Positions 7,458 to 55,820 of a DNA stretch of 64,000 nucleotides are shown here, piece after piece; position 1 is the first letter of the stretch, and every line of letters begins with the position of its first letter. This DNA is from Synergistales bacterium. Its GTDB lineage: Bacteria > Synergistota > Synergistia > Synergistales > Aminithiophilaceae. Below the pieces are notes generated by a model that worked only from the letters and a program-made list of their open reading frames with translations, ran no database searches and had not been told where the DNA came from. Location: the NCBI GenBank assembly GCA_018433595.1, contig JAHDQY010000014.1, positions 2,793 to 66,792 of the forward strand. Reading direction: 5' to 3'. Position numbers and translations under genes: made by a program.

Positions 7458-7493
7458 GATTTCCTCCTCCCGAGGCCGGTCAAGGCCTCGCCT

Positions 7494-8510: not shown

Positions 8511-8543
8511 AAACCCCTTTCGATTTTGTCTATCGGCTTCGCC

Positions 8544-9065: not shown

Positions 9066-9112
9066 CTTCCTCCCCTCCCTATCGTTGAGGCGCGAAAGGA
9101 GCGCCTCATCCG

Positions 9113-9154
9113 AAAAAAAAAGCCGGAGCCCCTTGATAACAAGGGGCCCCGGTC
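9113..9154 (-). terminator. attenuator terminator upstream of ilvH
   Basis: Minus-strand RNA CCGGGGCCCCUUG-UUAU-CAAGGGGCUCCGG forms a 13-bp stem with one G-U pair, followed by U9. It lies 47 nt upstream of the ilvH ATG and 18 nt downstream of the leader-ORF stop. Confidence 0.75.
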
Positions 9155-9172
9155 CTGTAAGGTTCCGCCGGT

Positions 9173-9256
9173 CTAGACGACGACGGAAGCTCCAGGAGGG
9201 GACCCGCAGCTAATAAGTACGAGGACAAGGCTGATAAGGGAAAGGGCCTTTTTCAT
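9173..9256 (-). CDS. 27-codon Leu/Ile/Val-rich leader peptide (not in the ORF track)
   Basis: Hand translation gives MKKALSLISLVLVLISCGSPPGASVVV*. 12 of 27 codons are Leu/Ile/Val and the last three are Val. AGGAGG lies upstream. The ORF sits between the promoter at 9305-9333 and the terminator at 9113-9154. Confidence 0.6.
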   Translation of the reverse strand: MKKALSLISLVLVLISCGSPPGASVVV

Positions 9257-21782: not shown

Positions 21783-22340
21783 ATGCAAATATGTACAAAG
21801 AAGGTGTCGCCCTTGAACACGAAGACCAAGGCCACTCTCGCCGTCCTCGTCAGCTTTCAGATCGTCCTTGCCCGACTGGCAAGCCTCCGGATCAGCATCG
21901 GAGGCATCGAGGGAATACGCCTCGGCTTCGGCGCCTTTCCCTCCATCTTCGCCGGCATCGCCTACGGTCCCCTGGCCGGTGCCGTCGTCGGCGCCCTCGG
22001 CGATATCATCGGCTTCTTCATCAACCCCATGGGGGCCTACATGCCCCATTTTACCCTGACAGCGGCCCTGACGGGAGCGATTCCGGGATTTGTCGTCAAA
22101 GCCCTGGGCGGCCCGTCGAAAATAAACCTGAGCCGCCTTCTCGTCGCCGTCGCGGCGGGTCAGATCGTCAGCTCGGTGCTTCTCGTCCCCCTCTTCCTCA
22201 GACAGCTTTTCGGCCTCCCCCTGGCGGCGACGCTGCCGGCCAAGATCGTCGGAGAGGCCGTCAACATCCCCCTTTACGCCCTGCTTTTCGACGCCCTCCG
22301 AAAGAGATTTCCGAGCCTTCACATCGCAGGGAACCGCTGA
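21783..22340 (+). CDS. ECF-transporter S component, folate-family-like
   Basis: 185 aa with about 6 TM segments. 'IRLGFGAFPSIFAGIAYGPLAGAVVGALGDIIGFFINP' resembles FolT-type S components. No EcfA/EcfT genes are nearby. Confidence 0.5.
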   Translation: MQICTKKVSPLNTKTKATLAVLVSFQIVLARLASLRISIGGIEGIRLGFGAFPSIFAGIAYGPLAGAVVGALGDIIGFFINPMGAYMPHFTLTAALTGAIPGFVVKALGGPSKINLSRLLVAVAAGQIVSSVLLVPLFLRQLFGLPLAATLPAKIVGEAVNIPLYALLFDALRKRFPSLHIAGNR

Positions 22341-22414
22341 AACAACGAGGCGCCGGGAGCATTGACGCTCCCGGCGCTCTTTCGTTCGAAGGCTTCGACC
22401 GACACGGCGTCCCG

Positions 22415-26777: not shown

Positions 26778-27308
26778 TCATTCTTTCGTTGAACGGTCGA
26801 TTCCGTCTCCAGGTGAGGTTCCCCCGAAGCGCCGTCCGTAGACGGCCAGGAGCCGGGCAAGGGCGGACGATATCGTCTCGTCCCGGACGAAGGGGGCGAT
26901 CCTCCGTTTTGCCGCCGCCAGCTCCTCCCTCGTGAACTGAAAAGCATTTTGAAAGCGGGGAGGCGGTTTTTTGCGCTTTTTCAGGACCGGCCCCACGATG
27001 ATGCGAAGCCCCTTGACGGGCAATCCCCATCCTTCCTTGATTTTCCGCGCCATGCCTCCCGACTGGATTCTGAAGCGCTGAGCCAGTGCCGGCGATTCGA
27101 CGATAACGACGAGAAGGTCGCCCTCGACGCGTAGAGGGCGACTTTTCGCTGCAAAGGGTCCGGCGACGCTTTCCCATTTGAGAGTCAGGTCGGCCAGGGA
27201 AAGGCCCTGTTTCACCGGAGCCGAAAGAGCTCCTTCAAGAAGGGCTCCAAGGGGGAGGGCGCCGGTCTCAGGTCTTCCTCGTCTCACCGCTGCGCCTCCT
27301 CGCTTCAA
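26778..27308 (-). CDS. dciA: DUF721 / DciA-family protein (putative replicative helicase operator)
   Basis: 176 aa. 'LADLTLKWESVAGPFAAKSRPLRVEGDLLVVIVESPALAQRFR' fits the DUF721 core, and the gene lies in the dnaA-dnaN-recF neighbourhood. The annotated start overlaps mnmG by 41 nt, so the true start is uncertain. Confidence 0.6.
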   Translation of the reverse strand: MKRGGAAVRRGRPETGALPLGALLEGALSAPVKQGLSLADLTLKWESVAGPFAAKSRPLRVEGDLLVVIVESPALAQRFRIQSGGMARKIKEGWGLPVKGLRIIVGPVLKKRKKPPPRFQNAFQFTREELAAAKRRIAPFVRDETISSALARLLAVYGRRFGGTSPGDGIDRSTKE

Positions 27309-29151
27309 GGGTGACCCAGATGAGCTGAATATCGGCGGGAGTCACGCCGGAAACGCGACCCGCCTGGCCCAGGGTAAGGGGACGGATTGCGGTCAGCTTC
27401 TGAAGGCTTTCCGAAGAGAGACCCCTTACCAGAGCATAGTCGAAATCGGCGGGCAACGGTACCCTCTCCATCTTCTCCATGCGGGTCACCTGACGTTCCT
27501 GCCGGGCGATGTAGCCTTCATAGCGGATCTCCGTCTGAAGGCAGGCCAGAAGATCCCTATCCGGCGGCTCTCCCAGATCGAGAAGGGACCAGACCGCCTC
27601 CAGGTCGATTTCAGGCCTCCGGACAAGTTCCAGCACGGAGATCTTCTCCGATAGGGGGGAGGAACCCAAGGACGCTAACCGCTCCAGGAGAGCCGCACCG
27701 GGGCGGACGAAGGTCGATCGAAGGAGATCCTTCAGGCTGTCCGACTCCTTCCACCGTCCCTGAAGGGCCTTCCAGCGCTCATCGTCGAGGAGACCCAACC
27801 GACGGCCGATAGGGGCCAACCGATGGTCGGCATTGTCATGGCGAAGGAGGAGGCGATGCTCGCAACGGCTGGTGAGCATCCGATAAGGCTCGGATGTCCC
27901 CTTGGTGACGAGATCGTCGACGAGAACGGCCATGTAGGCCTCATGGCGTCCGAGCTGCAGCGGCTCATCGCCTCTCACGGCGAGGGCGGCGTTGATTCCG
28001 GCGAGAAGTCCCTGGGCGGCCGCCTCCTCGTAGCCCGAAGTGCCGTTGATCTGGCCGGCACAGAAAAGCCCCCGCACCCTTTTCGTCTCAAGCCAGGGCA
28101 AAAGCTGCGTCGGCGGCAGGTAGTCGTACTCGATGGCGTATCCGGGCCGGACGATGCGGGCTCGGGAACAGCCAGGCAGCGAATGGACCATTTCGACCTG
28201 GGCATCGTAGGGAAGGCTGGTCGAAAAATTCTGCATGTAGATCTCCCTGTTCCTCCGGCCGACGGGTTCGAGGAAAACGGGATGGGACTCCCTGTCGGGA
28301 AAGCGCTGAACCCGATCCTCGATGGAGGGGCAGTAGCGGGGGCCCTTCCCTTCCATATCGCCCGTGAGGAAAGGAGAACGGTCCATGGCGTCGCGGATGA
28401 CCCGGTGGGTCGCCTCTCCCGTTCGGGTGAGGAAACAGGCGAAACCGCGATAAGCCCGCTTTTCGCCCCAGTGGCTGAAGGCAAGGGGTTCATCGGCGCT
28501 TTCCTGACGATCCAGTTCGGACCAGTCGACGCTGTCCGCATGAAGCCTCGGTGTCGTATCCGTCCTGAGACGTCCCGTCTCAAAGCCGAGCCTCCGGAGC
28601 GATTCCGTCAGACCCAGGGCGGCCACCTGACCGAGAGGCCCCGAGGAGAAGTTGACCCTCCCGATGAAGACTTTCCCCCCCAGGTAGGTTCCTGTCGCGA
28701 GGATGACCGTCCTCCCCCGGTAGACGCTCCCGAGGCGCGTGACCACGCCCGCGATGCGCCCCTCGTCGACGAGGAGCTCCGTGACCAGATCCTGATGGAG
28801 ATGGAGGTTCTCCTGTTCCTGAACCCGCTCCAGATAGTAGCGATGATAATCGTCGAGGTCACATTGAGCCCGGAGGGTCCGGACGGCCGGTCCCTTGGAG
28901 GTGTTGAGCCACCGGATATGGAGAGTCGACCCGTCCGTCGCCCGGGCCTGTTCGCCGCCCAGGGCGTCGATCTCCCGGACCAGGTGCCCCTTGGCCGGAC
29001 CTCCGATGGAGGGATTGCAGGCCATCAAGGCCAGATTATCGACGTAAAGGTTCAGGAGAAGGGTCGAAGCCCCCATCCTGGAGGCGGCAAGGGCCGCCTC
29101 ACAGCCGCCGTGTCCCCCTCCGACGACGATGACATCGTAAATTCCCTGCAT
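27268..29151 (-). CDS. mnmG: tRNA uridine 5-carboxymethylaminomethyl modification enzyme
   Basis: 627 aa from the ATG at 29151. 'YDVIVVGGGHGGCEAALAASRMG' FAD motif and full-length GidA similarity. The Arg/Pro-rich 96-codon extension in the track ORF is rejected. Confidence 0.9.
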   Translation of the reverse strand: MQGIYDVIVVGGGHGGCEAALAASRMGASTLLLNLYVDNLALMACNPSIGGPAKGHLVREIDALGGEQARATDGSTLHIRWLNTSKGPAVRTLRAQCDLDDYHRYYLERVQEQENLHLHQDLVTELLVDEGRIAGVVTRLGSVYRGRTVILATGTYLGGKVFIGRVNFSSGPLGQVAALGLTESLRRLGFETGRLRTDTTPRLHADSVDWSELDRQESADEPLAFSHWGEKRAYRGFACFLTRTGEATHRVIRDAMDRSPFLTGDMEGKGPRYCPSIEDRVQRFPDRESHPVFLEPVGRRNREIYMQNFSTSLPYDAQVEMVHSLPGCSRARIVRPGYAIEYDYLPPTQLLPWLETKRVRGLFCAGQINGTSGYEEAAAQGLLAGINAALAVRGDEPLQLGRHEAYMAVLVDDLVTKGTSEPYRMLTSRCEHRLLLRHDNADHRLAPIGRRLGLLDDERWKALQGRWKESDSLKDLLRSTFVRPGAALLERLASLGSSPLSEKISVLELVRRPEIDLEAVWSLLDLGEPPDRDLLACLQTEIRYEGYIARQERQVTRMEKMERVPLPADFDYALVRGLSSESLQKLTAIRPLTLGQAGRVSGVTPADIQLIWVTLEARRRSGETRKT

Positions 29152-30212
29152 CAACGTTCGGTGACCTCCCCCTGACGAACCATCCAGACCACCCCCGGCC
29201 ACTCGTAGGCCGCACCTCCCGCCGTGGCGGCGAAAACCTGCCACGAAGACGCCTGGAGGACGGCGAAAGTCCTGTTGCGCCCGGCCTCGTCGAGCTCCGC
29301 CGTCACCTCGTCGAGGAGGAGGATGGGCCTGCGTCGAAGGCGCCGCTCGACGGCCCATCCGGCGCCGAGCATGAGGGCGACGGCGGCGCGGCGACGATGG
29401 CCGCGGCTGAACCGGGCTGAAGCCTCTCTTTCCTCGCACCGGAGAAGAAGATCGTCACGCTGGGGACCGACGAAGACCCTCCCGGAAACCCGCTCCCTGT
29501 CGGCGGTCTGTCGGAAGGCCTCGAAAAGGTCCTGCTCCGGTTCATCCAATCCCCGGCTCCCTCCCCGCTGAAACTCGACGTCAAGAGCCCCGGGAAGAAG
29601 ATCCCCCGTATGAGCCAGGCCGAGGCGAAGCAGGTCGACGGCACTCCTTCGGGCCGACCAGATCCAACCCCCGAGGGGCACGAGAACCTTCGTCGTCAGA
29701 GAGCAGTCCCGATGCTGGCGCAGGAGGCAGATTCTCTGGCGCAGAGCCCGTCGATATTCATAAAGCCTAAGAGCGTAAAGAGGAAAAAGAAGGGCGCAAA
29801 GGCGGTCGAGAAAAAGCCGCCTCACCGACGGAGACCCTTCGACGAGGGCCAGATCGCCGGGTTGAAAGGCCAGCAGCGGGAGCCTCGCCCGGATTTCCGA
29901 GGCTTTCGTCATCTTGCCGTCGAGGCGGAGAGAGGACCTCCCCCGAATCAAGGCCTCGACTCGGAGACTTTCCTCGCCTCCGAAGGAGCCCTCGATCCGA
30001 GCCGTCGCCCCGGAAACGGACCAGGAAGGAAGGTCCGCGACGGACCGGCCTCCCTGAAAAGGCCCCCATCCTCCCAGCAGGTGAAGGGCCTCAAGGATGT
30101 TGGTCTTGCCCGATCCGTTAGGGCCGATCAGCAGGTTCAGCCCCGAAGACCACTCCGTTTTCCGGGGCCCGAGATTGCGGAAATGAACCCAAGCAACAGA
30201 AAGACAGTGCAT
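29151..30212 (-). CDS. recF: DNA replication and repair protein RecF
   Basis: 353 aa. 'LNLLIGPNGSGKTNILEALHLL' Walker A and 'ILLLDEVTAELD' Walker B/signature region. Confidence 0.9.
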   Translation of the reverse strand: MHCLSVAWVHFRNLGPRKTEWSSGLNLLIGPNGSGKTNILEALHLLGGWGPFQGGRSVADLPSWSVSGATARIEGSFGGEESLRVEALIRGRSSLRLDGKMTKASEIRARLPLLAFQPGDLALVEGSPSVRRLFLDRLCALLFPLYALRLYEYRRALRQRICLLRQHRDCSLTTKVLVPLGGWIWSARRSAVDLLRLGLAHTGDLLPGALDVEFQRGGSRGLDEPEQDLFEAFRQTADRERVSGRVFVGPQRDDLLLRCEEREASARFSRGHRRRAAVALMLGAGWAVERRLRRRPILLLDEVTAELDEAGRNRTFAVLQASSWQVFAATAGGAAYEWPGVVWMVRQGEVTER

Positions 30213-31354
30213 CAGACCTCGTCGTCGTCGCTTTCCTCTTCCGAAAGGGTGATGGGCATCAGCACGTAGAGAAAGCTCTCCTCTCCAGGCCGCGACATCC
30301 TCATCTGACCGTGAGAGCCGTTAAAGGAGAGTTCGACGACCTCATCCCTGAGCGCCCTGATTCCGTCCAGAAGGTAGGAGATGTTGAAAGCCACCCGGAG
30401 AGGTTCCCCGTCGATATCGGCAGCCAGCTCTTCCCGGGCCTCTCCGATGTCGGGGGCCTGTCCCCGGATCCTCAGGGAGCCTCCCGGCGTCAGCTGGAGG
30501 ATGACTGATTTCGTGAAATCCCGAACGACCACATTGGCCCTCTCCAGGGCCTCCTCCAGAGAGCTGCGCCCCACCATCATCCAGCTCGTGCGCTCGGGCA
30601 ACAGAATCTTCTCATAGGGGGGAAAGCTGGAATCGACGCGGCGAATGGAGAACTCGACTCCCTGGACCTGGAAATAGGCCTGGCTGTCGTCTTCGAGAAT
30701 CCGGACCGGAGCCTCACTCTCGACGGCGGACAGAAGACGATGAAGCTCCCGAAGGCCGTTCAGGGGGAGAAGAAGCTGCCCCTCGCCGGAAGCGTCGGAA
30801 AGGGGAGTCTGAGAGAGGGAGAGGCGCCGCCCGTCCGTCGCCACGGTTTTGAGTTTTCCCTCCTGGATCTGCAGCAGGGCCGCACTGAGATATTGGGGAA
30901 ACTCCTCGTTGGGCGAACCGGCGAAGGTCCCCTCCTCGAAAAGTCGGCTCAACGCCTGGACCGTCGTATCGCAGAAAAGACGGGCACTCTCGGAACGGGG
31001 GAGAAGGGGAAACTCCTCGACGGGAAGAACCGTCAGCGTGTAGCGGCTTCGTCCGGCTGTCAGGGTGGCCCGTCCCTTGGTGACTTCGAGGGAAAAACGG
31101 TCACCGGGAGCCTTTTTGAAAAGTTCTCCCATCGCCTTCGTCGGCAGGATGGTTTCCCCGGGTTCCTGGACCTCCGCCCCCTCGGCGCGGCACTTGAGGG
31201 AGGTCTTCAGATCCGTCGCTTCCAGGTGAAGTCCGGTTTCATCGGCCAGACAGCGAATTCCGGCCAGGATGCTGACGGTACTTTTGCTTCCCGTCGTCCG
31301 TTCCGCCATTTGCCAACTCTTGAGGAAACTGTTCTTTTCGATGAGTAACTTCAA
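30212..31354 (-). CDS. dnaN: DNA polymerase III beta sliding clamp
   Basis: 380 aa with three-domain clamp length. The N-terminus 'MKLLIEKNSFLKSWQMAERT' and 'LRVAFNISYLLDGIRAL' are typical DnaN segments. Confidence 0.9.
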   Translation of the reverse strand: MKLLIEKNSFLKSWQMAERTTGSKSTVSILAGIRCLADETGLHLEATDLKTSLKCRAEGAEVQEPGETILPTKAMGELFKKAPGDRFSLEVTKGRATLTAGRSRYTLTVLPVEEFPLLPRSESARLFCDTTVQALSRLFEEGTFAGSPNEEFPQYLSAALLQIQEGKLKTVATDGRRLSLSQTPLSDASGEGQLLLPLNGLRELHRLLSAVESEAPVRILEDDSQAYFQVQGVEFSIRRVDSSFPPYEKILLPERTSWMMVGRSSLEEALERANVVVRDFTKSVILQLTPGGSLRIRGQAPDIGEAREELAADIDGEPLRVAFNISYLLDGIRALRDEVVELSFNGSHGQMRMSRPGEESFLYVLMPITLSEEESDDDEV

Positions 31355-31640
31355 GGAGAGCTCCCCTCCCTACGGTTATTCCTGTTCCTTATGATATAAG
31401 AACAGTAGTCGTTGTACTAGGCATGGTGCATAGTGTGGATAACTGCCTTCAAGTCACTTCTCCTCGCGGTTTGTCCTGTGGATGAAGGAGTGGATGGTCC
31501 GGTGTATAGAGAGGTGGTTTATCCACAGTTTCCACAATTTTTTTGTGGAAACCTTTTAAAATCATCTTATCCACGAACAATTCACAGGCCCTTCCACCCT
31601 TCATTCACGGCTTATTCCGGATGTTATCCACAATAGACCG
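31355..31640. other. oriC part 1: DnaA-box cluster and AT-rich element in the dnaA-dnaN spacer
   Basis: Perfect TTATCCACA boxes lie at 31434-31442 (reverse), 31519-31527 and 31624-31632, with a 1-mismatch box at 31567-31575. The AT-rich palindrome GTTTCCACAA-ttttt-TTGTGGAAAC lies at 31528-31552, followed by CTTTTAAAATCATC. Confidence 0.8.
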
Positions 31641-32927
31641 TATCCGGGCGTCGTTGTCGACGACTTCGGCGATCTTGCGGCAGGCGTGAAGAACGGTCGT
31701 GTGATCCTTCTTGTGAAAGGCGTATCCGATCTGCTGAAGGCTCGTATCGGTAAGCTCCCGGCAGAGATACATGGCGACCTGACGGGCCAGAGCGAAATCG
31801 GCCGTCCGCTTCGTGCTCGTCAGATCCTTCACATCGAGGTTGAAGGCTTCGGCCACCTGCTCCTGGATGCTTTCGATCGTGACGGGGCCCCGCTGATCGT
31901 GGCGGATCAGATCCTTCAGCCATTCGGCGGCGCGTTCGACGGTGACGGACTCGGAATTCAGTTCCGAGCAGGCGACGACACGGTTGAGGGCCCCCTCGAG
32001 CTCGCGGATGTTGCTGGGAATGTTCTGGGCGAGAAAATAGATGATCTCCTCCTCCAGGCGATATCCCCTGAGTTCGGCCTTTTTCTGGAGAATGGCGATG
32101 CGCGTCTCCAGATCGGGCGGCTGGATATCGGTGACCAGTCCCCACTCGAAACGGCTGACGAGCCGGTCTTCGACCATCTTGATCTCTTTGGGGGGCCTGT
32201 CGGAGCTGATGACGATCTGTTTTTTCGCGTCGTGAAGGCTGTTGAAGGTGTGAAAGAACTCTTCCTGAGTGCTTTCCTTGTTGGCCAGAAACTGAATGTC
32301 GTCGATGAGAAGGACGTCGACATTCCGGTATTTCGACTTGAATTCCTGCATTCGCTTGTTCTGAATGGAAGAAATGAGCTCGTTCGTGAATTTTTCCGAA
32401 CTCAGGTAGACGATGCGTGCCCCAGGCCCCTTTTCCAGAACGTAGTGGCCGATGGCGTGCATCAGATGTGTTTTGCCCAGGCCGACGCCCCCCCAGATGA
32501 AAAGAGGGTTGTAGGCGACGCCGGGCGATTCGGCCGAGGCGAGGCTGGCAGCATGGGCGAGACGATTCGATTTGCCTACGACGAAGTTGCCGAAGACGTA
32601 GGCGGGGTTCAGGCCGGAGCGCGGTGCCTGAGGCGGCTGGGCCGCCTTTTCGGCGCGGTCCTGCTCGCCGGACCGGACCTCGGTGCCGACGCGGAGTTCG
32701 ACGCAGGAGGCGATCTCCGATTTTTCGACCATTTTCTGCAGAGGAACCAGAAAACGGGTCTGTATCTGCTCCTTGACGAAGACGTTGGGAACGTCAAGCA
32801 GGAGCGTGCCCTCCTGAAGCGAGACAGGCATGCAGGTCTTGAGCCAGATGTCTCCGGCACCGGGAGGCAGTTCGTCCCGGGCCTGAAGCAGTATCTGTTC
32901 CCAGATCAGGTCGAGATCCTTATCCAC
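31605..32927 (-). CDS. dnaA: chromosomal replication initiator protein DnaA
   Basis: 440 aa. 'LFIWGGVGLGKTHLMHAIG' Walker A, 'VDVLLIDDIQFL', and C-terminal DNA-binding 'HTTVLHACRKI'. The start codon is GTG (32927-32925). Confidence 0.95.
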   Translation of the reverse strand: MDKDLDLIWEQILLQARDELPPGAGDIWLKTCMPVSLQEGTLLLDVPNVFVKEQIQTRFLVPLQKMVEKSEIASCVELRVGTEVRSGEQDRAEKAAQPPQAPRSGLNPAYVFGNFVVGKSNRLAHAASLASAESPGVAYNPLFIWGGVGLGKTHLMHAIGHYVLEKGPGARIVYLSSEKFTNELISSIQNKRMQEFKSKYRNVDVLLIDDIQFLANKESTQEEFFHTFNSLHDAKKQIVISSDRPPKEIKMVEDRLVSRFEWGLVTDIQPPDLETRIAILQKKAELRGYRLEEEIIYFLAQNIPSNIRELEGALNRVVACSELNSESVTVERAAEWLKDLIRHDQRGPVTIESIQEQVAEAFNLDVKDLTSTKRTADFALARQVAMYLCRELTDTSLQQIGYAFHKKDHTTVLHACRKIAEVVDNDARIRSIVDNIRNKP

Positions 32928-35338: not shown

Positions 35339-36456
35339 AAAACAGGCGTATCGCCCTGCTCTACGCTTCGGCGGGGACGGGGCACAAGACGGCGGCACTG
35401 GCCCTGTCCCGGTGGTTCGAAAAGGAGTCCCCCGGCTGCGAGACGCTCTGCCTCGATACGCTGGACTTCACCAATGCCCTTGTCCGCGGCTTCTATGCCC
35501 GCTCCTACCTGGAGATGGTCCGGAGGGCGCCCCGTCTCTGGGGCTACTTCTACGATACGTTTGACGAACCTGAGGCCGCCGACGGCATCGTGGCCGCCCT
35601 CAACGAACTGACGGAGAGGCTTCACCTGAACCGCCTCATCGAGCGCCTCGAGGCCTTTGCTCCCGACGCCCTTCTCTTCACCCACTTTTTCGGCGCCGCA
35701 GCCGTCGCCGAGCAGCTCCAGCCTCATCGGCCCGTCTTCTACGTCAACACCGATTTCCTGAGCCACGTCTTTCACCGCAGCCGCCGCTTCACCGGGTGGT
35801 TCGTGGCGAGCGAGGAGACGCGCCTCCAGTACGAGGCCGACGGCATCGACATGGCCCGCGTCGTCGTCTCGGGCATTCCCGTTTCGCCGCGCTATCTCTC
35901 CCTTCCGTCGAAGGAGGAGGCCCGCCGGAATCTGGGTCTGTCCGGGAAAGACCCCGTCATCCTCGTCATGGGCGGCGGCATCGGTGTCGGGCCCTTCGAG
36001 GAGGTTGTCGCCTCCCTCGTCGGCGACGAGAGGCTCACCGTCCTCGCCGTCTGCGGCAACAACAAAAAGATCAAGGCAAGGCTGGAGGAGACCTTCGACG
36101 GGGCCGAGAACCTGAAGATCTTCGGTTTCGTCGACGCCATCGAAAACCATTACGTCGCCTCCGATCTCATCTTCACCAAACCCGGCGGCCTCTCGACGTC
36201 GGAGATCCTCTGCTCGGGGACGCCCATGATCATTGTCGATCCCATCCCGGGGCAGGAGCAGCGCAACAGCGACTACCTCCTCGACAGGGGGGCGGCGAGA
36301 ATCCTTTTCGACTACCGCTCGGCCCGAGCCAAGGCGAAGGCCCTCCTCGCCGACGAAGAGGCCCTCAGGAAACGGGAGCGGGACGCTGCCGCCCTGGCCC
36401 GACCCGAGGCGGGGAGGACGGTGGTCCGGGAGATCCTCTCCCGCATCGGATCGTGA
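35335..36456 (+). CDS. diacylglycerol glycosyltransferase (MGDG-synthase / UgtP-like, GT28)
   Basis: 373 aa. 'IALLYASAGTGHKTAALAL' N-terminal MGDG_synth motif and C-terminal 'TKPGGLSTSEILCSGTPMIIVDPIPGQEQRNSDYL'. Confidence 0.7.
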   Translation: MKNRRIALLYASAGTGHKTAALALSRWFEKESPGCETLCLDTLDFTNALVRGFYARSYLEMVRRAPRLWGYFYDTFDEPEAADGIVAALNELTERLHLNRLIERLEAFAPDALLFTHFFGAAAVAEQLQPHRPVFYVNTDFLSHVFHRSRRFTGWFVASEETRLQYEADGIDMARVVVSGIPVSPRYLSLPSKEEARRNLGLSGKDPVILVMGGGIGVGPFEEVVASLVGDERLTVLAVCGNNKKIKARLEETFDGAENLKIFGFVDAIENHYVASDLIFTKPGGLSTSEILCSGTPMIIVDPIPGQEQRNSDYLLDRGAARILFDYRSARAKAKALLADEEALRKRERDAAALARPEAGRTVVREILSRIGS

Positions 36457-36507
36457 GGCCGGGCCTCGGGAGGGCGAAAAGACCTTAGAGAAGAAACGGG
36501 ACAGCCC

Positions 36508-36536
36508 TTGACTTGCCGGGGCGCTGCACCTATCTT
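36508..36536 (+). promoter_or_regulatory. sigma70-like promoter TTGACT-17-TATCTT
   Basis: The -35 is at 36508-36513 and the -10 at 36531-36536, directly upstream of the riboswitch. Confidence 0.5.
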
Positions 36537-36549
36537 GATTTTGCGGCGG

Positions 36550-36770
36550 TCGGCAGATCGGACCGTCGGGTCAATCCATTAAGAGGGATCTTTCGGGAAG
36601 CCGGTGCGAAGCCGGCACAGCCCCGCTACGGTAAGGGTGACGAAGCGCGCGCAAGACCACTGACTTTCACAGAGTCGGGAAGGTGCCCGCCGAGGATGAC
36701 CCCGAGTCCGGATACCGAATTCCCTCGGACGGCGTTTCCCTCGAGGGTCGGGGAGGCGGCGGGAGTTGTG
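36550..36770 (+). promoter_or_regulatory. cobalamin (B12) riboswitch
   Basis: 'GGGAAGCCGGTGCGAAGCCGGCACAGCCCCGCTACGGTAAGG' matches the conserved core (GGGAA..GGTG..A..CC..C..CCCGC.AC.GTAA). 'AAGACCACTGAC....GGGAAGGTGCC' is the B12-box region and 'GAGTCCGGATACC' is the 3' conserved element. Confidence 0.85.
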
Positions 36771-36773
36771 TTC

Positions 36774-36798
36774 AGGGCCCCTTGGGGGTCCTTTTTTT
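36774..36798 (+). terminator. riboswitch expression-platform terminator
   Basis: AGGGCCC-(loop)-GGGUCCU stem followed by U7, 40 nt upstream of the first regulated ATG. Confidence 0.65.
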
Positions 36799-36838
36799 GT
36801 GGGCATCAGAGATTCGAAAAACCGAGGAGGAATGGGAA

Positions 36839-38110
36839 ATGATGCAACGGATAGGAAAAAAACGCTTGACCGGCGCGCTTCTTCTGGGGCTCCTGCTGGC
36901 TGCCGGCGCCGCCTGGGCTGCCCTGACCGACGCCGACATCGTCTTTCTGACCGTCGACGACAGCTACACGGCCGGAGCTCTCGGGACGATCGAGGTCGGC
37001 AATCCCCCCACCAAGAACCTGGTCACGGGGCTGGCCGGTGACGAGATGGGGGTCGTCGTCGATATCTGGGGCCAGAAGAAGATCCTTTTGAGACGCTACC
37101 ACTTTGGCTCCACTTCCGATACGGTCCGCCTCTACCCCGGAGAGAGTTGGTCGCCCATCGCCGAAAGCAAGCTCGGTGACAATATCTGTCAGGTCAAGGT
37201 CGTCGGCGACGGTCTCTACGTCGCCAACTGGGGCGACACGGGGCTCCGCCGCGGGTCGATCGAGCAGTACGACGTGCAGGACCTTCTCGACAGCGCCGCC
37301 TCCATGACGCCCGTCAAGAAGGTCACCTTCGACGACGGCGACGACTTCTTCGAGCATGTCAAGGATTTCCGCGTCGTCGGCAACTATCTCTACGCCGTCG
37401 TGGCCGACGTCAAGGGGTCGTGGCCTCCGGTCTACGACAAGAGCCGGCTCTACAAGGTCTCCCTCTCCGACATGACCGTCGCGGACAGCCTTGAGGTCGC
37501 CAAGAATCCCGGAGGCTCCGTCAACAAGGCCGTCCTGGCCGAGCACGGCAGCGCCCTCTACGTCGCCTGTTTCGGCGGCGCCTACGGAGAGGTCCTCACT
37601 TCCTCCCTGGTGAAGGTCGACCTGGCGACGTTCAAGGCGACGGTCCTCGACGGCGGATCGGCCCTTCCCGCAGGCTACGGCTACTCGGGAATCGCCGTTG
37701 CTCCCGACGGATCGGTCCTCATCAACGCCGCCTCGACGAACTGGGAGGAGCCGACGAAGCTCTTCCGCTCCACCGTCGCCGATCTGGAAGCCTCGACGCC
37801 GAAGCTGACGGCGCTGGATGTCTCCGACGTCGGCTTCGGAGGCACTCTCTTCTTTGACGCGGCCACGGACCGGTTCTGGGTCGAGGGGAGCAAGGTCATC
37901 GTCGCCGTCGGCAGGGACGGCGCGGTCCTGAGGACCTACACCGCCACGGACCTGGGCGGCAACCCCTATGACGTTCTCTCCGCCGCGGGCCTGAGCTTCT
38001 CCGGCGAGGTCCTTCCTCCCGGCGGCGGCTCGGGAGGCTGCGCCCTCGGATTCGCTCCGGCCGGGCTGCTTTTGGTGCTCCCCCTGCTGATCCTTGTCGG
38101 CAGGCGCTGA
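36839..38110 (+). CDS. B12-riboswitch-controlled secreted, C-terminally anchored beta-rich protein of unknown family
   Basis: 423 aa. GAGGAGG RBS and signal peptide 'LLLGLLLAAGAAWA'. Recurrent motifs are DGLYVANWGD, NYLYAVVADVKG, SALYVACFGG and GTLFFDAATDRFWV. The C-terminus is 'PPGGGSGGCALGFAPAGLLLVLPLLILVGRR'. Confidence 0.6.
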   Translation: MMQRIGKKRLTGALLLGLLLAAGAAWAALTDADIVFLTVDDSYTAGALGTIEVGNPPTKNLVTGLAGDEMGVVVDIWGQKKILLRRYHFGSTSDTVRLYPGESWSPIAESKLGDNICQVKVVGDGLYVANWGDTGLRRGSIEQYDVQDLLDSAASMTPVKKVTFDDGDDFFEHVKDFRVVGNYLYAVVADVKGSWPPVYDKSRLYKVSLSDMTVADSLEVAKNPGGSVNKAVLAEHGSALYVACFGGAYGEVLTSSLVKVDLATFKATVLDGGSALPAGYGYSGIAVAPDGSVLINAASTNWEEPTKLFRSTVADLEASTPKLTALDVSDVGFGGTLFFDAATDRFWVEGSKVIVAVGRDGAVLRTYTATDLGGNPYDVLSAAGLSFSGEVLPPGGGSGGCALGFAPAGLLLVLPLLILVGRR

Positions 38111-38216
38111 GGCCGCCCGCTTAAGCGCGGCTCTTCCTGAAGCTCGACGGGCCGGGACGGCGATTCAGCCGCCCCGGCTCGTTCCCGAAAAAACGCCTGA
38201 GAGGATGTCACGGAGC

Positions 38217-40187
38217 ATGAAGAGGTTGATGGTATTTCTGGCGGCCCTCGCCGCCGCCGTCTGCGGCCCCCTGGGGGCTCCCCTGGAGGCCGTGACGGAG
38301 CTTCCCGCCGTTCTCGTCACGGCGGGCGCTCTCGGTGAGGAGGATCAGGAGCTTTCGCCCGGCGCCGTGGCGGTCATCCGCCCTGAAGAGGTGCAGGGCG
38401 AGTTCAAGACCCTTCCCGAACTGCTCGATCAGTCCGTGGGGGTCCACGTCATCCGCACCCAGGGACGGGGCGGCTACACGGTGGCCTCCGTCCGGGGCAG
38501 CACCTCGGCCCAGGTTGCCGTCTACGTCGACGGCACGCTGGCCAATCTCGAGAGCGAAGCCGCCGTCGATCTTTCGACGATCCCCGTCGAGAACGTCGAG
38601 CGCATCGAAGTCTACCGGGGCCACGTGCCGGCCGCCTTCGGCGTCTCCGGCATGGGGGCCGTCATCAACATCGTCACCGTGGCGCCGCGGAAGGCCGAAA
38701 GCTCCCTTCTCGTCGGCCTGGGAGACTACGGGGAGTACCGCTCGGCCCTGCGCCACGCTGCTCCCCTTCTCGGCGGAGATTTTCTTTTCACCGCCGAATT
38801 TTCCGGGAGCGACGGCGATTTCTCCTATCTCAACGACAACGGCACCCCCTACAACACCAACGACGACTATGAGGCCACTCGGCTCAACAACGGCTGGGAG
38901 GGGCGGAACGTCCTCCTCAAATGGAGCCGCGACGCCTGGGCGGCCCGCCTCTCCTGGGAGGATCGGACGCGGGATCTTCCCCTTCAGGCCCCGGGCAACG
39001 ACAAGCCGGCACTCCAGAAGCCCGGCACCCGCCTGGAGACGGAAAAATGGGACGTCGCGCTGGGGCGGAGCTTCCGCGTCGGCGACGTCGACATGAGCCT
39101 TCAGGTCGGCCATCTGGAGCAGGACAAGGAGTTCTTCAACCCCCACAACTACCTGGGCCAGTACGGCGATTACCACAACCGCTACAGATCGGACCGTGAT
39201 TTTCTCTCTCTCTCGGCCTCTCTTCCGGTGGGCCTCAGCCACTACCTGGAGTTCTTCGGTAACGTCTCCCGCGAGGAGCTTCGCGTCGAGGGGGACGTCA
39301 CGGCCAAGCTGGGCGGTCAGAGCCGCTACAGCCGGGACAAGATCGACCTCTCCCTTCAGGATTCGATCACCGTCGGGGCCTCGGGAAACCTTCTGCTTGT
39401 CCCCACCCTTCGATGGAACGACGTCGACGGCGAAGACCATCTCTCCTGGTCGCTCGGTGCCGACTGGCTTTTCGCCCCCTCCTGGCGCCTCAAGGCCTCC
39501 TACGGGCGTTACCACAGGGCCCCCAACCTCTACGAACTCTACGGCGACAGCGCCATGATCCTTCCCAGCCCGAACCTCTCCTGGGAAGAGGGGAGCCAGT
39601 GGGACTTCGGCCTTCACTGGCAGGGAAACTGGAACCGTGTCGAGACCCGCGTCGGCCTCACCTACTTCCGCTCCGAAATGGACGATCTGATCGAATTCGT
39701 CATGATCAATCCCCGTTACGGTCAGTACCGCAACATCAGTAGAGCCGAGATCGACGGCGTCGAGCTGGAGACCCGCTTCATCCGGGCCCCCTGGGACCTG
39801 ACCCTCTCCTACACCTGGATGAAGGCCCTGAACAGGACTCCGGAGAGCTTCCGCAACGACATGAGGCTGCCCAACCGCCCCGAAAACGCCGCCCACGCCC
39901 GATTGGCCTATGACTACTCCGAAAGGCTGACCCTCTACGGCGAGGTCGATTACACGGGAGACAACTTCCTGGATCAGCGGGAGACCATCCGGTACAGCGA
40001 CCTCACCGTCGTCAACGCCGGCCTCCGCTGGGATCTGGACGACGACAAGGTCCTGACCGTCGGCGTCGACGACGTCTTCGACAAGTCGAAGGAGATGACC
40101 CTCGTGCCCACGTCGGGGGCCGAAGGCCTGGCCTGGTACCCTCTCCAGGGACGGACGTGGCACGTGAGCCTGCTCTGGAAATTCTGA
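38217..40187 (+). CDS. TonB-dependent receptor (BtuB-like by context)
   Basis: 656 aa with a signal peptide. TonB box 'ELPAVLVTAG', plug 'VRGSTSAQVAVYVDG...ERIEVYRG', and a beta-barrel ending 'WHVSLLWKF'. The start is the ATG at 38217 or 38205. Confidence 0.85.
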   Translation: MKRLMVFLAALAAAVCGPLGAPLEAVTELPAVLVTAGALGEEDQELSPGAVAVIRPEEVQGEFKTLPELLDQSVGVHVIRTQGRGGYTVASVRGSTSAQVAVYVDGTLANLESEAAVDLSTIPVENVERIEVYRGHVPAAFGVSGMGAVINIVTVAPRKAESSLLVGLGDYGEYRSALRHAAPLLGGDFLFTAEFSGSDGDFSYLNDNGTPYNTNDDYEATRLNNGWEGRNVLLKWSRDAWAARLSWEDRTRDLPLQAPGNDKPALQKPGTRLETEKWDVALGRSFRVGDVDMSLQVGHLEQDKEFFNPHNYLGQYGDYHNRYRSDRDFLSLSASLPVGLSHYLEFFGNVSREELRVEGDVTAKLGGQSRYSRDKIDLSLQDSITVGASGNLLLVPTLRWNDVDGEDHLSWSLGADWLFAPSWRLKASYGRYHRAPNLYELYGDSAMILPSPNLSWEEGSQWDFGLHWQGNWNRVETRVGLTYFRSEMDDLIEFVMINPRYGQYRNISRAEIDGVELETRFIRAPWDLTLSYTWMKALNRTPESFRNDMRLPNRPENAAHARLAYDYSERLTLYGEVDYTGDNFLDQRETIRYSDLTVVNAGLRWDLDDDKVLTVGVDDVFDKSKEMTLVPTSGAEGLAWYPLQGRTWHVSLLWKF

Positions 40188-40214
40188 TCCGGCCCGCTCC
40201 ATAGCCTGTGGAAG

Positions 40215-40254
40215 AAGCCCTGTGCCGCCCATCTCCGGGCGGCACAGGGCTTTT
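40215..40254. terminator. bidirectional terminator between the receptor and the dehydrogenase operon
   Basis: 16-bp perfect stem AAGCCCTGTGCCGCCC-atctcc-GGGCGGCACAGGGCTT followed by TT. Confidence 0.7.
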
Positions 40255-40268
40255 GAACGAGGATGCCT

Positions 40269-41429
40269 TTAAACGACCATCAGGTCCTTGAACTTTTTCC
40301 CCTGGGCGTAGCGTCTCCAGTGAAAATCGGAAATGTCCAGATCCGACGATCCGCGGATGATCATCTGAGCGACGAGCTCGCCGGCGACGGCGCCGAACAT
40401 GAAGCCACGGCAGCCGGAGACGTTGAGCCAGAGACCCTTGATCTCGTCGGTCTCCCCGATGCAGGGCTGGAGATCGGGCGTGAGGTCGTACATGCCTGAC
40501 CACTGATGGGTGATGCCGATGTTTCTGGTCCGGGGGAGGACCTTCAACAGCACCTGGGCCGTTCGTTCAAGGAAGCCCCAGGAGTTTCCCATGACCTCGG
40601 GATCATGGTCGGCCTTGGTGTAGGCGTTCGGGCCGCATCCGGCGATGATCGTTCCGTTGGGGCGTTGCTGGATGTAGTAGTCTCCTACGAAGCTCATGAG
40701 CATGGTGGGACAGACGTCGAAGTCGACGGCTTCCGTGATGAGGGCTTCGTGGCGTTCTCCGACGACGGGGAAATCGATTCCGGCCATGTCGCCGATATGG
40801 CGGTTCCAGGCCCCGGCGGCGCTGACCACAACGGGGGCATCAATCTCGCCCCGGCTGGTCACCACACCTTTGATCCGCCCGCCGGCCACCTTCAGGCCGG
40901 TGACCTCCGTGAACTTCTGGAATTTGACGCCGAGGCGCTTGGCCGCCTCCTGGTGGGCGATATTGCAGAGGAAGGGATCGGCCTGGCCGTCCCGTTCGTA
41001 GTAGGAGAAGCCGAGAGCATCGTCGACGTTGATGCCGGGGCAGATCGCCCGGGCCTCGTCGTGATCGATCATCCGGGAGGGAACGCCCATGGAGTTTTGA
41101 AGAGCCACGCTCTCCCGGAAGATCTCGACCTCTTTTTCCGTGTAGCCGATCATGAGGTAGCCGTTCTGATAGAGGCCGATATCCATGCCGGTCTCTTCCT
41201 GCATGTGCTCGAACTTATCGATGCACCGCTTCCCCATTTCGATGTTGAGACGTGATCCCCACTGGGCCCGAAAGGCGGCCCCGCAACGTCCCGTCGCTCC
41301 GGAGGCGACGGTTTTCTTTTCCACGAGCACGACGTTTTTCATGCCGAGCTTGGCCAGATGGTAGGCCGTGCACGTGCCCATCATTCCGCCGCCGATCACG
41401 ACGGCGTCAGCGGTTTTCTGCCATTCCAT
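40269..41429 (-). CDS. FAD-dependent oxidoreductase, DAO family (sarcosine-oxidase-beta / HcnC / proline-dehydrogenase-beta-like)
   Basis: 386 aa. 'DAVVIGGGMMGTCTAYHLAKLG' dinucleotide fold and DAO-family length. Confidence 0.75.
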   Translation of the reverse strand: MEWQKTADAVVIGGGMMGTCTAYHLAKLGMKNVVLVEKKTVASGATGRCGAAFRAQWGSRLNIEMGKRCIDKFEHMQEETGMDIGLYQNGYLMIGYTEKEVEIFRESVALQNSMGVPSRMIDHDEARAICPGINVDDALGFSYYERDGQADPFLCNIAHQEAAKRLGVKFQKFTEVTGLKVAGGRIKGVVTSRGEIDAPVVVSAAGAWNRHIGDMAGIDFPVVGERHEALITEAVDFDVCPTMLMSFVGDYYIQQRPNGTIIAGCGPNAYTKADHDPEVMGNSWGFLERTAQVLLKVLPRTRNIGITHQWSGMYDLTPDLQPCIGETDEIKGLWLNVSGCRGFMFGAVAGELVAQMIIRGSSDLDISDFHWRRYAQGKKFKDLMVV

Positions 41430-50624: not shown

Positions 50625-53600
50625 ATGAAAAGGCGCGCTTTGGCTTGGATCTGTCTCTTTTTTTGCTGGATCGGGGCATCGATGGCCCGGGCCGACGATT
50701 TTCAGGTGCTCTCCGTTATGCCCCAGGGAGAGACGGCCGGGCGTCCCGAGATCAGTCTGACCTTTTCGGCGCCGGTGGCCGACGAGTCCCTTCAGGGGAG
50801 GACCCTCCCTCCGGAGCGGCTGCCCCTGGAGATCCGCCCCCGCCTCGAGGGGGACGGCGCCTGGGACGGCGCCGATCGGCTGGTTTTCACGCCCCGGGCG
50901 CCCCTGGCTCCGGCCACGGAGTACCGGTTGACCCTCAAGCCCCTCCGGGACCGCTCCGGCCGGCTTCTGGCCGGCCCTCAGTCCTTCGAGTTCCGCACGG
51001 CTCCCCTGAAGCTCCTTGAGGTGCGCCCCGTCGAGAGGGACCCCTACGGCGGGATGACGCTGGAGTTCGTTTTCTCCCTTCCCGTCCCCCCTCAGAGGCT
51101 TTCGGGTTTCGTCTCGGCCGAGAGCGGAGGCCAGACGGTGAATCTGGCCCCTCAGGGTCAGGTCCCGTCGGAGAAGGTCCGCGTCACGGCCGACTCCGTC
51201 CCCGGTCCGACGCTGACTCTGAAGGTGGAGAAGGGCCTCGCCGCCGATGTCGGGCCTCTGGGGCTGGAGGAGACGCGGACGATCACCGTCGACGCCTCGG
51301 CAAGGCTGACCGTCACCGGAAGCTATGCCGAGAGCCGGGATGACCAGGGACGCATCTTCCTCTACACCTCCCGCCCCGTCGACCCCGGTGACGTGAAGGG
51401 CTACCTGACCCTGTCGCCGCAGAGATCCTTCCGGGTCGAGCCGCTTTACGCCGGTTTCGCCCTCGTCGGCGATTTCGCCCCTAGGGAACGGATCACCGTC
51501 ACCCTGAAGAAGGGGCTGGGCGGGAGCGACGGCCTCGAAGCCGATAAAGTCCAGTCGTTCGTCATGCCCGATCGGGACCGGTCCGTCCGGTTTCCCCTGG
51601 CGGGGACCTTCCTCACCCCCGTCGAGGAGCCCCGCATCGCCCTGGAGACGGTCAATCTCGACGCTGTCGAGATTTCAGCCTGGAAGCTCTACCCCAACAA
51701 CATTCCTCTCGTGACGGGGGCCCTCGGCGACGGGGGTGAGCCGCCCAAGGCCCTGGCCCTCTCTTTCGGGACGAAGCGCTTCCGCGTCGACAACCGGCTC
51801 AACGGGACGGTGCGGGGAGCCGTCGATCTCGGTGAGCTTCTCGGCGAGAGTCGAGGCGTCTTCCTCATCGAGGCCGGCGACGGCGAGGGAGGCTGGAACG
51901 TGGCCCGCCAGATGGTGACCCTCACCGATCTGGGCCTTTCGGCCCGGGTTTGGGAGAGGGGGATGCTGGTCTGGGTCAACGCCCTATCTTCGGCCGAGCC
52001 CCTCAAGGGAGCCTCCGTCTCGGTCTACTCCTCGAGCAATCAGCTTCTGGCACGGGGAGTCACCGACGGAGACGGTCTCTGGGTCGCCCGCCGGGAGAGC
52101 TCCTGGGAGAGTCAGCTGCGCCCCGCCGTGATCACCGTCGAGCACGAGGGGGATCTCTCCTTCCTGATCCTCGCGGGGGACCGCTTCGCCGACGCGGGAG
52201 TGGACGGTTCCGGCGCTCCCTGGGTGACGACCTACGAGGTCGACTGCCTCCTCCCCCGGGGGATCTTCCGCCCCGGCGAGACCGTCGACGTGACGGCTCT
52301 CGTCCGGGACGGCAGGATGAACCCGGCCGGCACCTTCCCCCTCCTCTGGAAGGTGACCAACTCTGTCGGAATGGAGGTCTTCCGGGGGTCGGAGAAGCTC
52401 TCTCCGGCGGGGACGATGAGGGCCGCCTTCGATCTTCCCCCTGAGGCCCCCACGGGGCGCTACCGTTTCGATCTCTTCGCGGCGGGTCAGGAGGAGAGGC
52501 CTCTGGGAGGTGCCGCCTTTCAGGTCGAGGATTTCACCCCTCCCCGGATCGATGTCAACCTCACCTCACCCCGGAGCCTTCTCCTGGCGGGAGAGACTCT
52601 TCACCTCGATTTCAACGCCGCCTATCTCTTCGGGGCCCCCTCGCCGGGGCTCAACTGGGAAATTCAGGCCGTGACGCTGCCCCGGACCTTCCGGTCCCTG
52701 CGCTTTCCCGAGTTCGCCTTCGGCGACGGTGAGAAGAGCTTCCAGAGATCGGAAGAGCATCTCGGGTCGGGGACGCTCGACGACGAGGGGCGGGGCGGTC
52801 TCGACTGGACCGTTCCCGAGGGCTGGAAGGCTCCCTCCCAGGTGGATCTGGTCTGCTCTTTCCAGGTGATGGAGCCCGGCGGCCGCTGGGTCTCGCGTCA
52901 TCTCTCGCTGCCTTGTGCCGTGACGCCTCTTCAGATCGGCATCCGCTCCCCCGTCGGCGATCTCCGGCCCGGTGTGCCCCTCCCCTTCCGGGTGGCGGCG
53001 GTGACGGCCGACGACACTCCCGCCGAGGCTTCCCTCACCTGGGAGCTCTTCTCCCTCGCCGACCGCTACGTCATGGTCCGCGAAGAGGGACGGACGCGGA
53101 TGCGCTGGCAGGAGGAGAAGGTCCCCCTTGCCGAGGGCGGTCTTGTCCTGAAGGAGGGTCTTGCCGATCTCTCCCTTGAACCCGGGGGCGAAGGGCGGTT
53201 CCTCCTTCTCCTCTCCGACGGCAAAGGGTCGTCGGCCTCGGCCCGTTTCGATGTCTGGCACCCCTGGGGGCAGTCGGCCAAAGGGGCCTCGCTCCCCGAC
53301 CGGGTCGATCTGGAGCTGGACAAGCCGCTCTACAGGCCCGGCGAGAGGGCCTCTCTCGCCTACCGGGCCCCCTTCCCCGGGCGGGCTCTCGTCACTGTCG
53401 AGGCGGAGGGGCTCGTCCGGGCCCAGGTCCTCAAATCGGTCGACGCCGAGGGGACCGTCACCGTCGATGTCGACCGATCGATCTGGCCCAACGGCTGGTG
53501 CACCTTCCAGGTGATCCGTCCCATGGAGGGGGGCGACGGAGGACCTTCGAGCGCCCTGGGCGCCCTCCCGCTGACGGTGGAGAGCGAACGCCTCAAGGCC

Positions 53601-55817: not shown

Positions 55818-55820
55818 ACC

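Follow-up and report, generated by a model that had tools for sequence, protein, structure and literature searches.

We analysed a 64,000-nucleotide stretch of the genome of an uncultured Synergistales bacterium (GenBank assembly GCA_018433595.1, contig JAHDQY010000014.1, positions 2,793 to 66,792 of the forward strand), which we call the window and whose own numbering is used here. On its + strand lies an operon in which a cobalamin riboswitch is followed by a gene for a 423-residue exported protein (gene 1, 36839–38110 by open reading frame and translation, with the second ATG at 36842 as a possible alternative start) and a gene for a 656-residue TonB-dependent receptor (gene 2, 38217–40187). 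An earlier reading of this locus, made from the sequence only, had proposed that the gene 1 product has a role like that of BtuG, the surface beta-propeller that captures vitamin B12 for the receptor BtuB in Bacteroides. The riboswitch, fold and gene-context results given below support this proposal, and the relation to BtuG is stronger than had been supposed, extending to remote sequence homology.

A riboswitch-controlled operon of two genes

The region upstream of gene 1 contains, in order and all on the + strand, a promoter-like site, a riboswitch aptamer, a terminator and a ribosome-binding site. The promoter-like site is of the sigma-70 type, TTGACT-17 nt-TATCTT, and is present at 36508–36536 as the sequence-only reading had described it; a consensus scan gives it 9 of 12 matches and finds no second such site in the 4.2 kb from 36300 to 40500, where shuffled sequences average 0.3; we treat it as a putative promoter. 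It ends 14 nt 5′ of the aptamer of the cobalamin riboswitch (36550–36740), for which the proposed comparison with RF00174 by cmscan returned 95.6 bits against a gathering score of 31.5 (E = 1.6e-22) over the full length of the model (positions 1–189 of 189). Scanning the whole window at the gathering threshold revealed no tRNA, rRNA or other RNA besides this one.

The expression platform contains an intrinsic terminator at 36774–36798, which starts 33 nt 3′ of the aptamer and consists of an 8-bp GC-rich stem with a UUG loop (36774–36792) and a run of seven U residues (36792–36798). Its presence had been noted before, and both a terminator scan and the minimum-free-energy fold recover it, with a local energy of −22.5 kcal/mol for the hairpin. 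As a whole, the 146-nt platform region gains no stability over shuffled versions (z = −0.31) and yielded no antiterminator, and we claim only the local terminator hairpin. A ribosome-binding site, GAGGAGG, can be read directly at 36824–36830, 8 nt before the ATG at 36839, and GGAGG-like sites are also found upstream of the homologues' starts. Judged from these sequence features, riboswitch and terminator form a corrinoid-responsive transcription-termination switch ahead of the operon, the ligand response being predicted.

Gene 1 encodes a protein with three recognizable parts, and both the signal peptide and the repeat motifs quoted in the sequence-only reading are present in its translation. 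Residues 1–27 (36839–36919, + strand) look by inspection like a signal peptide, with a K/R-rich N-region, a Leu/Ala core and a putative cleavage site between AWA and A; residues 7–27 are helical in the AlphaFold2 (AF2) model described below. The signal peptide contains no lipobox cysteine, the first Cys of the protein being residue 117. The beta-propeller domain (residues about 34–381; 36938–37981, + strand) is acidic, with a net charge of −17, and is followed by a C-terminal sorting domain (residues 397–423; 38027–38107, + strand). Taken singly, the 423-residue sequence matches no Pfam family, LVIVD at E = 0.81 being the only match, and a phmmer search of the Protein Data Bank (PDB) with it gave zero matches. 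Near-identical public proteins, from metagenome-assembled genomes (MAGs) of Synergistales, carry no more informative names than 'hypothetical protein' and 'Synergist-CTERM protein sorting domain-containing protein'.

Gene 2 (+ strand) has the build of a TonB-dependent receptor, as had been stated, with a signal peptide, a plug domain (Pfam Plug, 4.7e-16) and a barrel (TonB_dep_Rec_b-barrel, 4.6e-43). Directly after the signal peptide stands ELPAVLVTA, which is conserved among the orthologues and which we take to be the TonB box from its resemblance to DTLVVTA of E. coli BtuB. Among all PDB sequences the closest relatives are six E. coli BtuB entries (E about 3e-23), with weaker matches to Cir (1e-16) and to FepA-type receptors (1e-8). 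The best NCBIfam match is likewise the B12 receptor model TonB-B12 (TIGR01779), at 161 bits, under the equivalog cutoff of 599.7; with 113 bits for NF007926, which has a cutoff of 836, neither of the BtuB equivalog cutoffs is reached. On these sequence comparisons gene 2 is a divergent receptor of the BtuB type.

A Synergistota family of exported acidic proteins

A word-indexed homologue search with the 423-residue protein found three relatives (99, 62 and 50% identity) and, when repeated with a 34-sequence profile, five. An exhaustive search of 1.84 billion cluster representatives with a hidden Markov model (HMM) yielded 84 proteins at E ≤ 1e-3, of which 51 have E ≤ 1e-10. One candidate, P0010, is a 1259-residue insect protein and was rejected as a low-complexity false positive. 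By name the members come from Synergistaceae, Synergistales and Aminiphilus, and most are 400–445 residues long, though some reach 600–680 residues.

The members that we examined combine a signal peptide, a beta-rich domain and a tail of Gly/Ser, Cys, a hydrophobic stretch and basic residues. This tripartite tail is present in 31 of the 34 aligned members, none of which has an N-terminal lipobox within the first 40 residues (0/34). The propeller domains are acidic in every one of the 34, with net charges from −6 to −47. Among the residues conserved in the family are G49, D94, H173, N223, D340 and a GGD loop at 66–68.

The long forms of 600–680 residues are P0023 (L095 5001–7040), P0018 (L096 1642–3564), P0015, P0019, P0021, P0025 and P0029. 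P0018 and P0023 have an extra region of about 200–250 residues between the propeller and the sorting tail, an arrangement reminiscent of the BtuG1-BtuH fusion; as a candidate BtuH- or BtuJ-like domain, the extra domain of the long forms is without a Pfam match. One short form, P0013, and one long form, P0015, share the Synergistaceae MAG 'LBS45', which suggests paralogues comparable to BtuG1-3 in Bacteroides.

Fold and sequence relation to BtuG

An AF2 model of the 423-residue protein built on the 34-sequence alignment has a mean predicted local distance difference test score (pLDDT) of 88.6 and a predicted TM-score (pTM) of 0.84, and DSSP assigns it 27 strands, all within residues 34–381, a number that would correspond to about seven four-stranded blades. 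It supersedes a first model made from 4 sequences (pLDDT 63.6), whose fold matches mixed BtuG with Sec12 and Kelch proteins. The check that had been suggested for such a model, whether it is a propeller and resembles BtuG, came out clearly: the fold is all-beta, and in a Foldseek comparison with the PDB ranks 1–7 and 10 are occupied by BtuG structures, with E from 3.7e-10 to 1.1e-7, target-normalised TM-scores (TMt) of 0.67–0.72 and root-mean-square deviations of 4.1–5.3. These are BtuG2 (8bai, 8bn0 and 8bmx_D), the apo structure 3dsm, BtuG1 (8ptd and 8ptf) and BtuG3 (8okv and 8p97); the PDB title of 8ptf says BtuG2, while its sequence is that of BtuG1. XusB (rank 8, TMt 0.65) and E. coli YncE (TMt 0.63) come next, followed at lower scores by generic Kelch and WD40 propellers.

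Profile comparisons point the same way. The family HMM, run against 177,635 PDB sequences, places the BtuG1 chains 8ptf, 8ptd and 8blw_B on top (E = 2e-10 to 1e-9), about four orders of magnitude ahead of the runners-up, which are designed propellers (3e-6) and 1L0Q; YncE and XusB were not detected in this PDB search, YncE not even at E ≤ 10. For a direct comparison of families, 79 BtuG propellers were extracted from Bacteroidota genome contigs. Aligned with these by hhalign, the 34-member family obtains a probability of 97.9% in local mode (E = 3.7e-13, over 247 columns, which is most of the propeller) and 99.2% in global mode, and the family HMM matches 67 of the 79 at 37–42 bits. The two families have in common the motifs vG(K/R)NP and gKLYV(A/S)x.GG. 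The statement of the sequence-only reading that the protein belongs to no assignable family therefore stands for Pfam but not for profile methods, which link it to BtuG both in the PDB search and by hhalign.

Several results weigh against so close a relation. Beta-propellers match each other easily in fold searches, and the sequence identity to BtuG in the structure alignments is only 13–15%. In the reverse direction, a narrow HMM built from the BtuG1 clade gives the Synergistota proteins no more than 20.6 bits. DUF5074 (PF16819), the Pfam family to which BtuG belongs and which recognizes B. thetaiotaomicron BtuG1 with 43.9 bits (gathering score 27.2) in a positive control, does not match the window protein at E ≤ 1 and matches weakly (E = 0.15) in just one of the 34 members. 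In the hhalign alignment, the window protein has, compared with BtuG1, an insertion of about 22 residues around residue 80 and a gap of about 40 residues around residue 301.

The residues expected to touch the ligand are on the same side of the balance. The corrinoid contacts reported for BtuG1 are F60, Q/E139, R141, E180, R244, E249 and Y290 (bioRxiv 10.1101/2024.02.16.580637), and in the alignment they either fall on non-identical, variable positions (Q139 on H173, R141 on K175, E180 on G225, R244 on A298) or have no alignable counterpart; no reliable alignment of the SEGxF loop with the family was obtained, and at 14% identity loops in general are poorly aligned. This is weak evidence against binding, since BtuG1 and BtuG2 themselves, at 24% similarity, have only about 60% of their contacts in common (bioRxiv 10.1101/2024.02.16.580637). 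We also note that the preprint gives 'Glu139' as a BtuG1 contact where the B. thetaiotaomicron sequence (L013 3542–5530) has Gln, in SSRQPRA; the other listed contacts agree with that sequence after a numbering offset of one.

Could the resemblance to BtuG be convergent, a generic propeller of the YncE/YVTN type having been independently recruited into a Synergistota B12 operon, where it would be BtuG-like in function? The motifs common to the two families (vG[KR]NP ... gKLYV..GG) are of a kind usual in YVTN/YncE-like repeats, 1L0Q and designed propellers were also matched, and to the low identity and the missing DUF5074 match may be added the differences from BtuG in the type of anchor, the order of the genes and the blade insertions. 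Against convergence, the HMM search puts BtuG1 about four orders of magnitude ahead of every other PDB propeller and leaves YncE undetected, the profile alignment extends over most of the propeller, and the first seven fold ranks are all BtuG. We consider convergence unlikely and conclude from the profile and model comparisons that the family is, by this evidence, a remote homologue of BtuG and not merely an analogue.

Conserved genomic context

Linkage of the homologues to riboswitches and receptors was examined in loci retrieved for twelve further distinct members, those compared by BLASTP being 24–62% identical to the window protein; the counts below describe this sample of retrieved loci, not a large census. 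In each of the 11 members with evaluable upstream sequence (the window, P0002, P0003, P0005, P0006, P0013, P0032, P0027, P0014, P0023 and P0018), the gene is immediately preceded on its own strand by a full-length RF00174 riboswitch. Outside this count are P0031, whose 1.2 kb of upstream sequence is occupied by exbD and tonB, and P0004 (a 1.5-kb contig) and L093, which are too short. A strong terminator hairpin with a run of U residues stands behind the aptamer in 7 of 11 family loci, the window locus included.

Directly downstream, a receptor with plug and barrel domains is encoded in 11 of 12 members, and in two loci the propeller and receptor genes overlap by 4 nt. The receptors that follow the propeller gene in 10 loci besides the window belong to one orthologous group, with 42–83% identity over their full length. 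They are far better conserved than the propellers, a difference that would fit a propeller more exposed than its partner. The module of riboswitch, propeller gene and receptor gene is conserved across the family, and the linkage that the sequence-only reading had wished to see checked holds in homologues down to 24–29% identity. Because it holds across such divergence, the family is firmly tied to corrinoid acquisition, and we regard a role of the family in corrinoid uptake as highly probable.

Other neighbours fit this picture in part of the loci. Genes of the btuFCD type (Peripla_BP_2, FecCD and ABC_tran) follow in L005, L006, L009 and L011 and occur nearby, on the opposite strand, in L094; several loci also have ExbB, ExbD, TonB, CobU or RACo genes in the neighbourhood. 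To be counted on the other side is the long-form member P0018, which keeps the riboswitch and is followed by two large, beta-helix-like proteins without a clear Pfam domain and by no receptor. The gene for RACo, the reductive activase of corrinoid proteins (Raco_middle/RACo_C_ter), was seen near the module in two unrelated loci, L001 (14273–16114) and L005 (1286–2971), and these neighbours hint that the imported corrinoid serves corrinoid-dependent methyltransferases.

The same context bears on a second alternative, namely that the propeller assists the receptor without itself binding corrinoid (a structural cap, a factor for assembly or stability, or a binder of another ligand) and is co-regulated simply through its position in the operon. 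The unconserved BtuG1 contact residues would agree with this, as would the good fold matches to YncE and to XusB, the latter bound to ferrichrome. On the other hand, the riboswitch stands directly before the propeller gene in all 11 lineages, even in the one member without an adjacent receptor; BtuG, not XusB or YncE, is the best match both by fold and by sequence profile; BtuG paralogues have only about 60% of their own contacts in common, so that unconserved residues weigh little; and all examined members are strongly acidic. We judge an accessory role without corrinoid binding to be quite improbable and regard corrinoid capture by the propeller as the better account.

The C-terminal sorting signal and the location of the protein

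The tail of the gene 1 product reads GGGSGGC-ALGFAPAGLLLVLPLLILVG-RR, that is, GSGGC ending in Cys401 (codon 38039–38041), a Pro-containing hydrophobic helix and a terminal RR. The sequence-only reading had described it as an anchor of this general kind, and the tail is indeed present, but it is not an anonymous one: the NCBIfam model for the Synerg-CTERM sorting domain, TIGR04564, matches with 25.7 bits against a cutoff of 22.5 (E = 8.8e-6; model positions 1–27 of 27). In the only paper on it, Synerg-CTERM is described as having three elements: a run of Gly and Ser that closes with an invariant Cys, then, without a spacer, a helix rich in Leu that contains an invariant Pro, and finally a group of basic residues. 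The signal occurs only in Synergistales and co-occurs with MrtS, a predicted CPBP/Rce1-like protease, and with a divergent type II secretion system (T2SS) (Haft, bioRxiv 10.1101/2023.06.07.544157). Every described feature (Gly/Ser motif with Cys, Pro-containing helix, basic cluster) is found in the tail, and the source organism, a member of the Synergistales, matches the taxonomic range of the signal.

By analogy with MYXO-CTERM, a related Cys-containing signal that is reported to be cleaved and to leave its proteins surface-exposed via the T2SS, it has been proposed that the Cys of Synerg-CTERM is probably lipidated, the helix cleaved and the protein displayed on the cell surface (bioRxiv 10.1101/2023.06.07.544157). 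This makes doubtful the earlier suggestion that the protein is anchored by a sorting signal rather than by a lipid, the preprint having a lipid on the invariant Cys first and cleavage afterwards. By the same analogy Cys401 is probably lipidated, and we infer that the gene 1 product is located at the surface. A further point on the debit side is that the Synerg-CTERM/MrtS/T2SS route is itself a bioinformatic prediction only. Among the scanned open reading frames of the window there are no MrtS or T2SS genes, no search aimed at either having been made.

A hydrophobic C-terminal helix followed by RR also resembles a stop-transfer anchor, and with Synerg-CTERM processing known from prediction alone and no btuF gene in the window operon (the neighbouring open reading frames were scanned), one can imagine that the protein stays in the inner membrane by this helix, its periplasmic propeller escorting corrinoids, as a chaperone, from the receptor to the ATP-binding cassette (ABC) importer or taking the place of BtuF. 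The tail, however, matches a curated sorting-signal model, invariant Cys and helix Pro included; the related MYXO-CTERM signals are those reported as cleaved and surface-exposed; several loci encode a BtuF-type protein (Peripla_BP_2) in the same string of genes, and there the propeller is no BtuF substitute; and the homologue BtuG works on the cell surface. Retention in the inner membrane seems very unlikely to us, and we retain display at the surface as the working assumption.

Surroundings of the operon in the window

Upstream of the operon are genes for a DHH-family protein and an MGDG-synthase-like glycosyltransferase, and downstream are convergent sarcosine-oxidase-like and AFOR genes. 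The operon is taken to consist of two genes because the next downstream gene is convergent and the neighbours are unrelated to B12. A second open reading frame of 423 codons in the window (71–1342) was considered as a paralogue of gene 1 and rejected, as it encodes an amino-acid permease.

A probable replication origin adjoins the operon. The − strand carries gidA/mnmG (27268–29439), a recF-like frame of 353 residues (29151–30212), dnaN (30212–31354) and dnaA (31605–32927), a cluster (27268–32927) that lies 3.6 kb upstream of the riboswitch; the order dnaA-dnaN-recF ... MGDG-synthase ... riboswitch is the same in L001, the locus of the 62%-identical member. Further away, 50625–57977 (+ strand) encodes a 1730-residue bacterial alpha-2-macroglobulin (MG2, bMG3, bMG5, bMG6, bMG10 and bait-region domains), directly followed by the gene for a penicillin-binding protein of the PBP1C type (Transgly, Transpeptidase and BiPBP_C), which together are presumably the classical A2M-PBP1C pair. 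Two large frames have no Pfam match at E ≤ 1e-4, one of 1497 residues (4683–9176, + strand) and one of 865 residues (21791–24388, + strand); the window is GC-rich and overlapping frames on opposite strands are common in it, and these two are only putative genes.

Proposed mechanism and its meaning

The following sequence of events would account for the locus. When corrinoid is scarce the riboswitch would be without ligand and RNA polymerase would read through into the operon, while corrinoid bound to the aptamer would let the hairpin and U-run at 36774–36798 end transcription. The gene 1 propeller would be exported by its Sec signal peptide and held by the C-terminal Synerg-CTERM helix. [quoted passage not shown] There the propeller would bind cobalamin or related corrinoids on one face and pass them to the BtuB-like receptor encoded by gene 2. 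Most likely it rests on this receptor like the hinged lid of BtuBG complexes, and the remaining steps of import would fall to TonB-ExbBD and to a BtuFCD system whose genes lie elsewhere.

The riboswitch, terminator, domain architecture, fold similarity, remote homology and conserved gene context have been set out above, and corrinoid binding by the propeller and its complex with the receptor are what we infer in addition. To the specific model, in which gene 1 encodes a BtuG-like surface corrinoid-capture protein, we assign a probability of roughly 0.7. The fuller proposal is that Synergistota build the BtuB-BtuG 'pedal-bin' machine with the lid tethered from the opposite end, by a lipidated C-terminal Cys delivered via Synerg-CTERM, MrtS and T2SS, the protein then being the first functionally assigned cargo of that system and a BtuG relative outside the reported phylum. 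We would give even odds on this.

Synergistota are common in anaerobic digesters, in oral and gut communities and in termite guts. If the model is true, lid-assisted corrinoid capture extends to this further diderm phylum, the capping of TonB-dependent transporters by a surface-anchored lid is no peculiarity of Bacteroidota, and the purely predicted Synerg-CTERM system gains a concrete cargo that can be assayed. The loaded protein should be pink, and its colour would help to follow how proteins with C-terminal Cys signals reach the surface. Some 80 clusters now listed as 'hypothetical proteins' could receive an annotation, and the family would offer new and very divergent B12-binding scaffolds for comparison with BtuG.

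Comparison with known systems

BtuG is a scavenger of B12 with very high (reportedly picomolar to femtomolar) affinity that decides competitive fitness in gut Bacteroides, and its homologues were reported to be exclusive to Bacteroidetes, BlastP having found none outside (Wexler et al., 2018, PMC6143338). The portion of a September 2026 review available to us covers BtuH and BtuJ beyond Bacteroidota, not BtuG (PMC13616437). Our full-text literature search returned nothing relevant linking BtuG to Synergistota, or Synergistota to BtuB.

The window family resembles BtuG (BtuG1/BtuGH, BtuG2 BT1954 and BtuG3 BT2095 of B. thetaiotaomicron) in being an all-beta propeller with profile homology to it, and in being acidic, as is reported for the B12-binding face of BtuG (PMC10404256). 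In both cases the gene adjoins that of a btuB-type TonB-dependent transporter under a cobalamin riboswitch, the membrane anchor is cysteine-based (in the family by prediction) with a flexible linker to the propeller, and there may be paralogues, in the family from two members in one MAG. The differences are as clear. BtuG belongs to Bacteroidota and the 423-residue family to Synergistota. BtuG, which acts on the cell surface, is an N-terminal lipoprotein, BtuG2 being anchored at Cys32 (PMC6143338, PMC10404256); it has an N-terminal lipobox and the Bacteroidota export signal, whereas in the family the signal peptide is of the ordinary kind and Synerg-CTERM stands at the C-terminus, so that the tether is at the opposite end. 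In one B. thetaiotaomicron locus (L013) a 681-residue frame, presumably btuB1, is directly upstream of btuG1, whereas in the window the propeller gene comes first. Finally, the window protein is below the DUF5074 threshold, the BtuG1 contacts are not conserved, and one segment is inserted and one missing.

Compared with E. coli btuB, gene 2 is alike in having BtuB as its nearest neighbour among solved structures, in its plug, barrel and TonB-box-like motif, and in the RF00174 riboswitch ahead. It differs in that E. coli BtuB needs no surface partner, the riboswitch in the window preceding first the partner gene and then the receptor, and in scoring far under the NCBIfam cutoffs for BtuB equivalogs.

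Among other surface propellers, the xenosiderophore-binding lipoprotein XusB of Bacteroides (PDB 9hqk) is similar as a ligand-bound surface lipoprotein of propeller fold, but it binds ferrichrome, is an N-terminal lipoprotein and does not match the family profile, and the riboswitch of the window points to corrinoids instead. XusB pairs with a TonB-dependent transporter, and proteins of the SusD/RagB type form the lids of such transporters. BtuK1 of B. thetaiotaomicron is a B12-binding propeller lipoprotein (PKD plus seven-bladed) encoded in a cobamide-uptake operon; it differs by its N-terminal PKD domain and is not reported as a receptor lid, and it is absent from the top 50 Foldseek matches of our model. 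As a Synerg-CTERM/MYXO-CTERM cargo, the gene 1 product is typical in carrying the tripartite signal, above the TIGR04564 cutoff, in a Synergistales host, and the family would differ in bringing a specific role, corrinoid capture; in the literature searched, no Synerg-CTERM cargo had a specific physiological role. Riboswitch-controlled btuB together with a surface B12-binding propeller is already known as a class of mechanism; what is new lies in the phylum, in the protein family, which is not part of DUF5074, in the means of anchoring and in the order of the genes.

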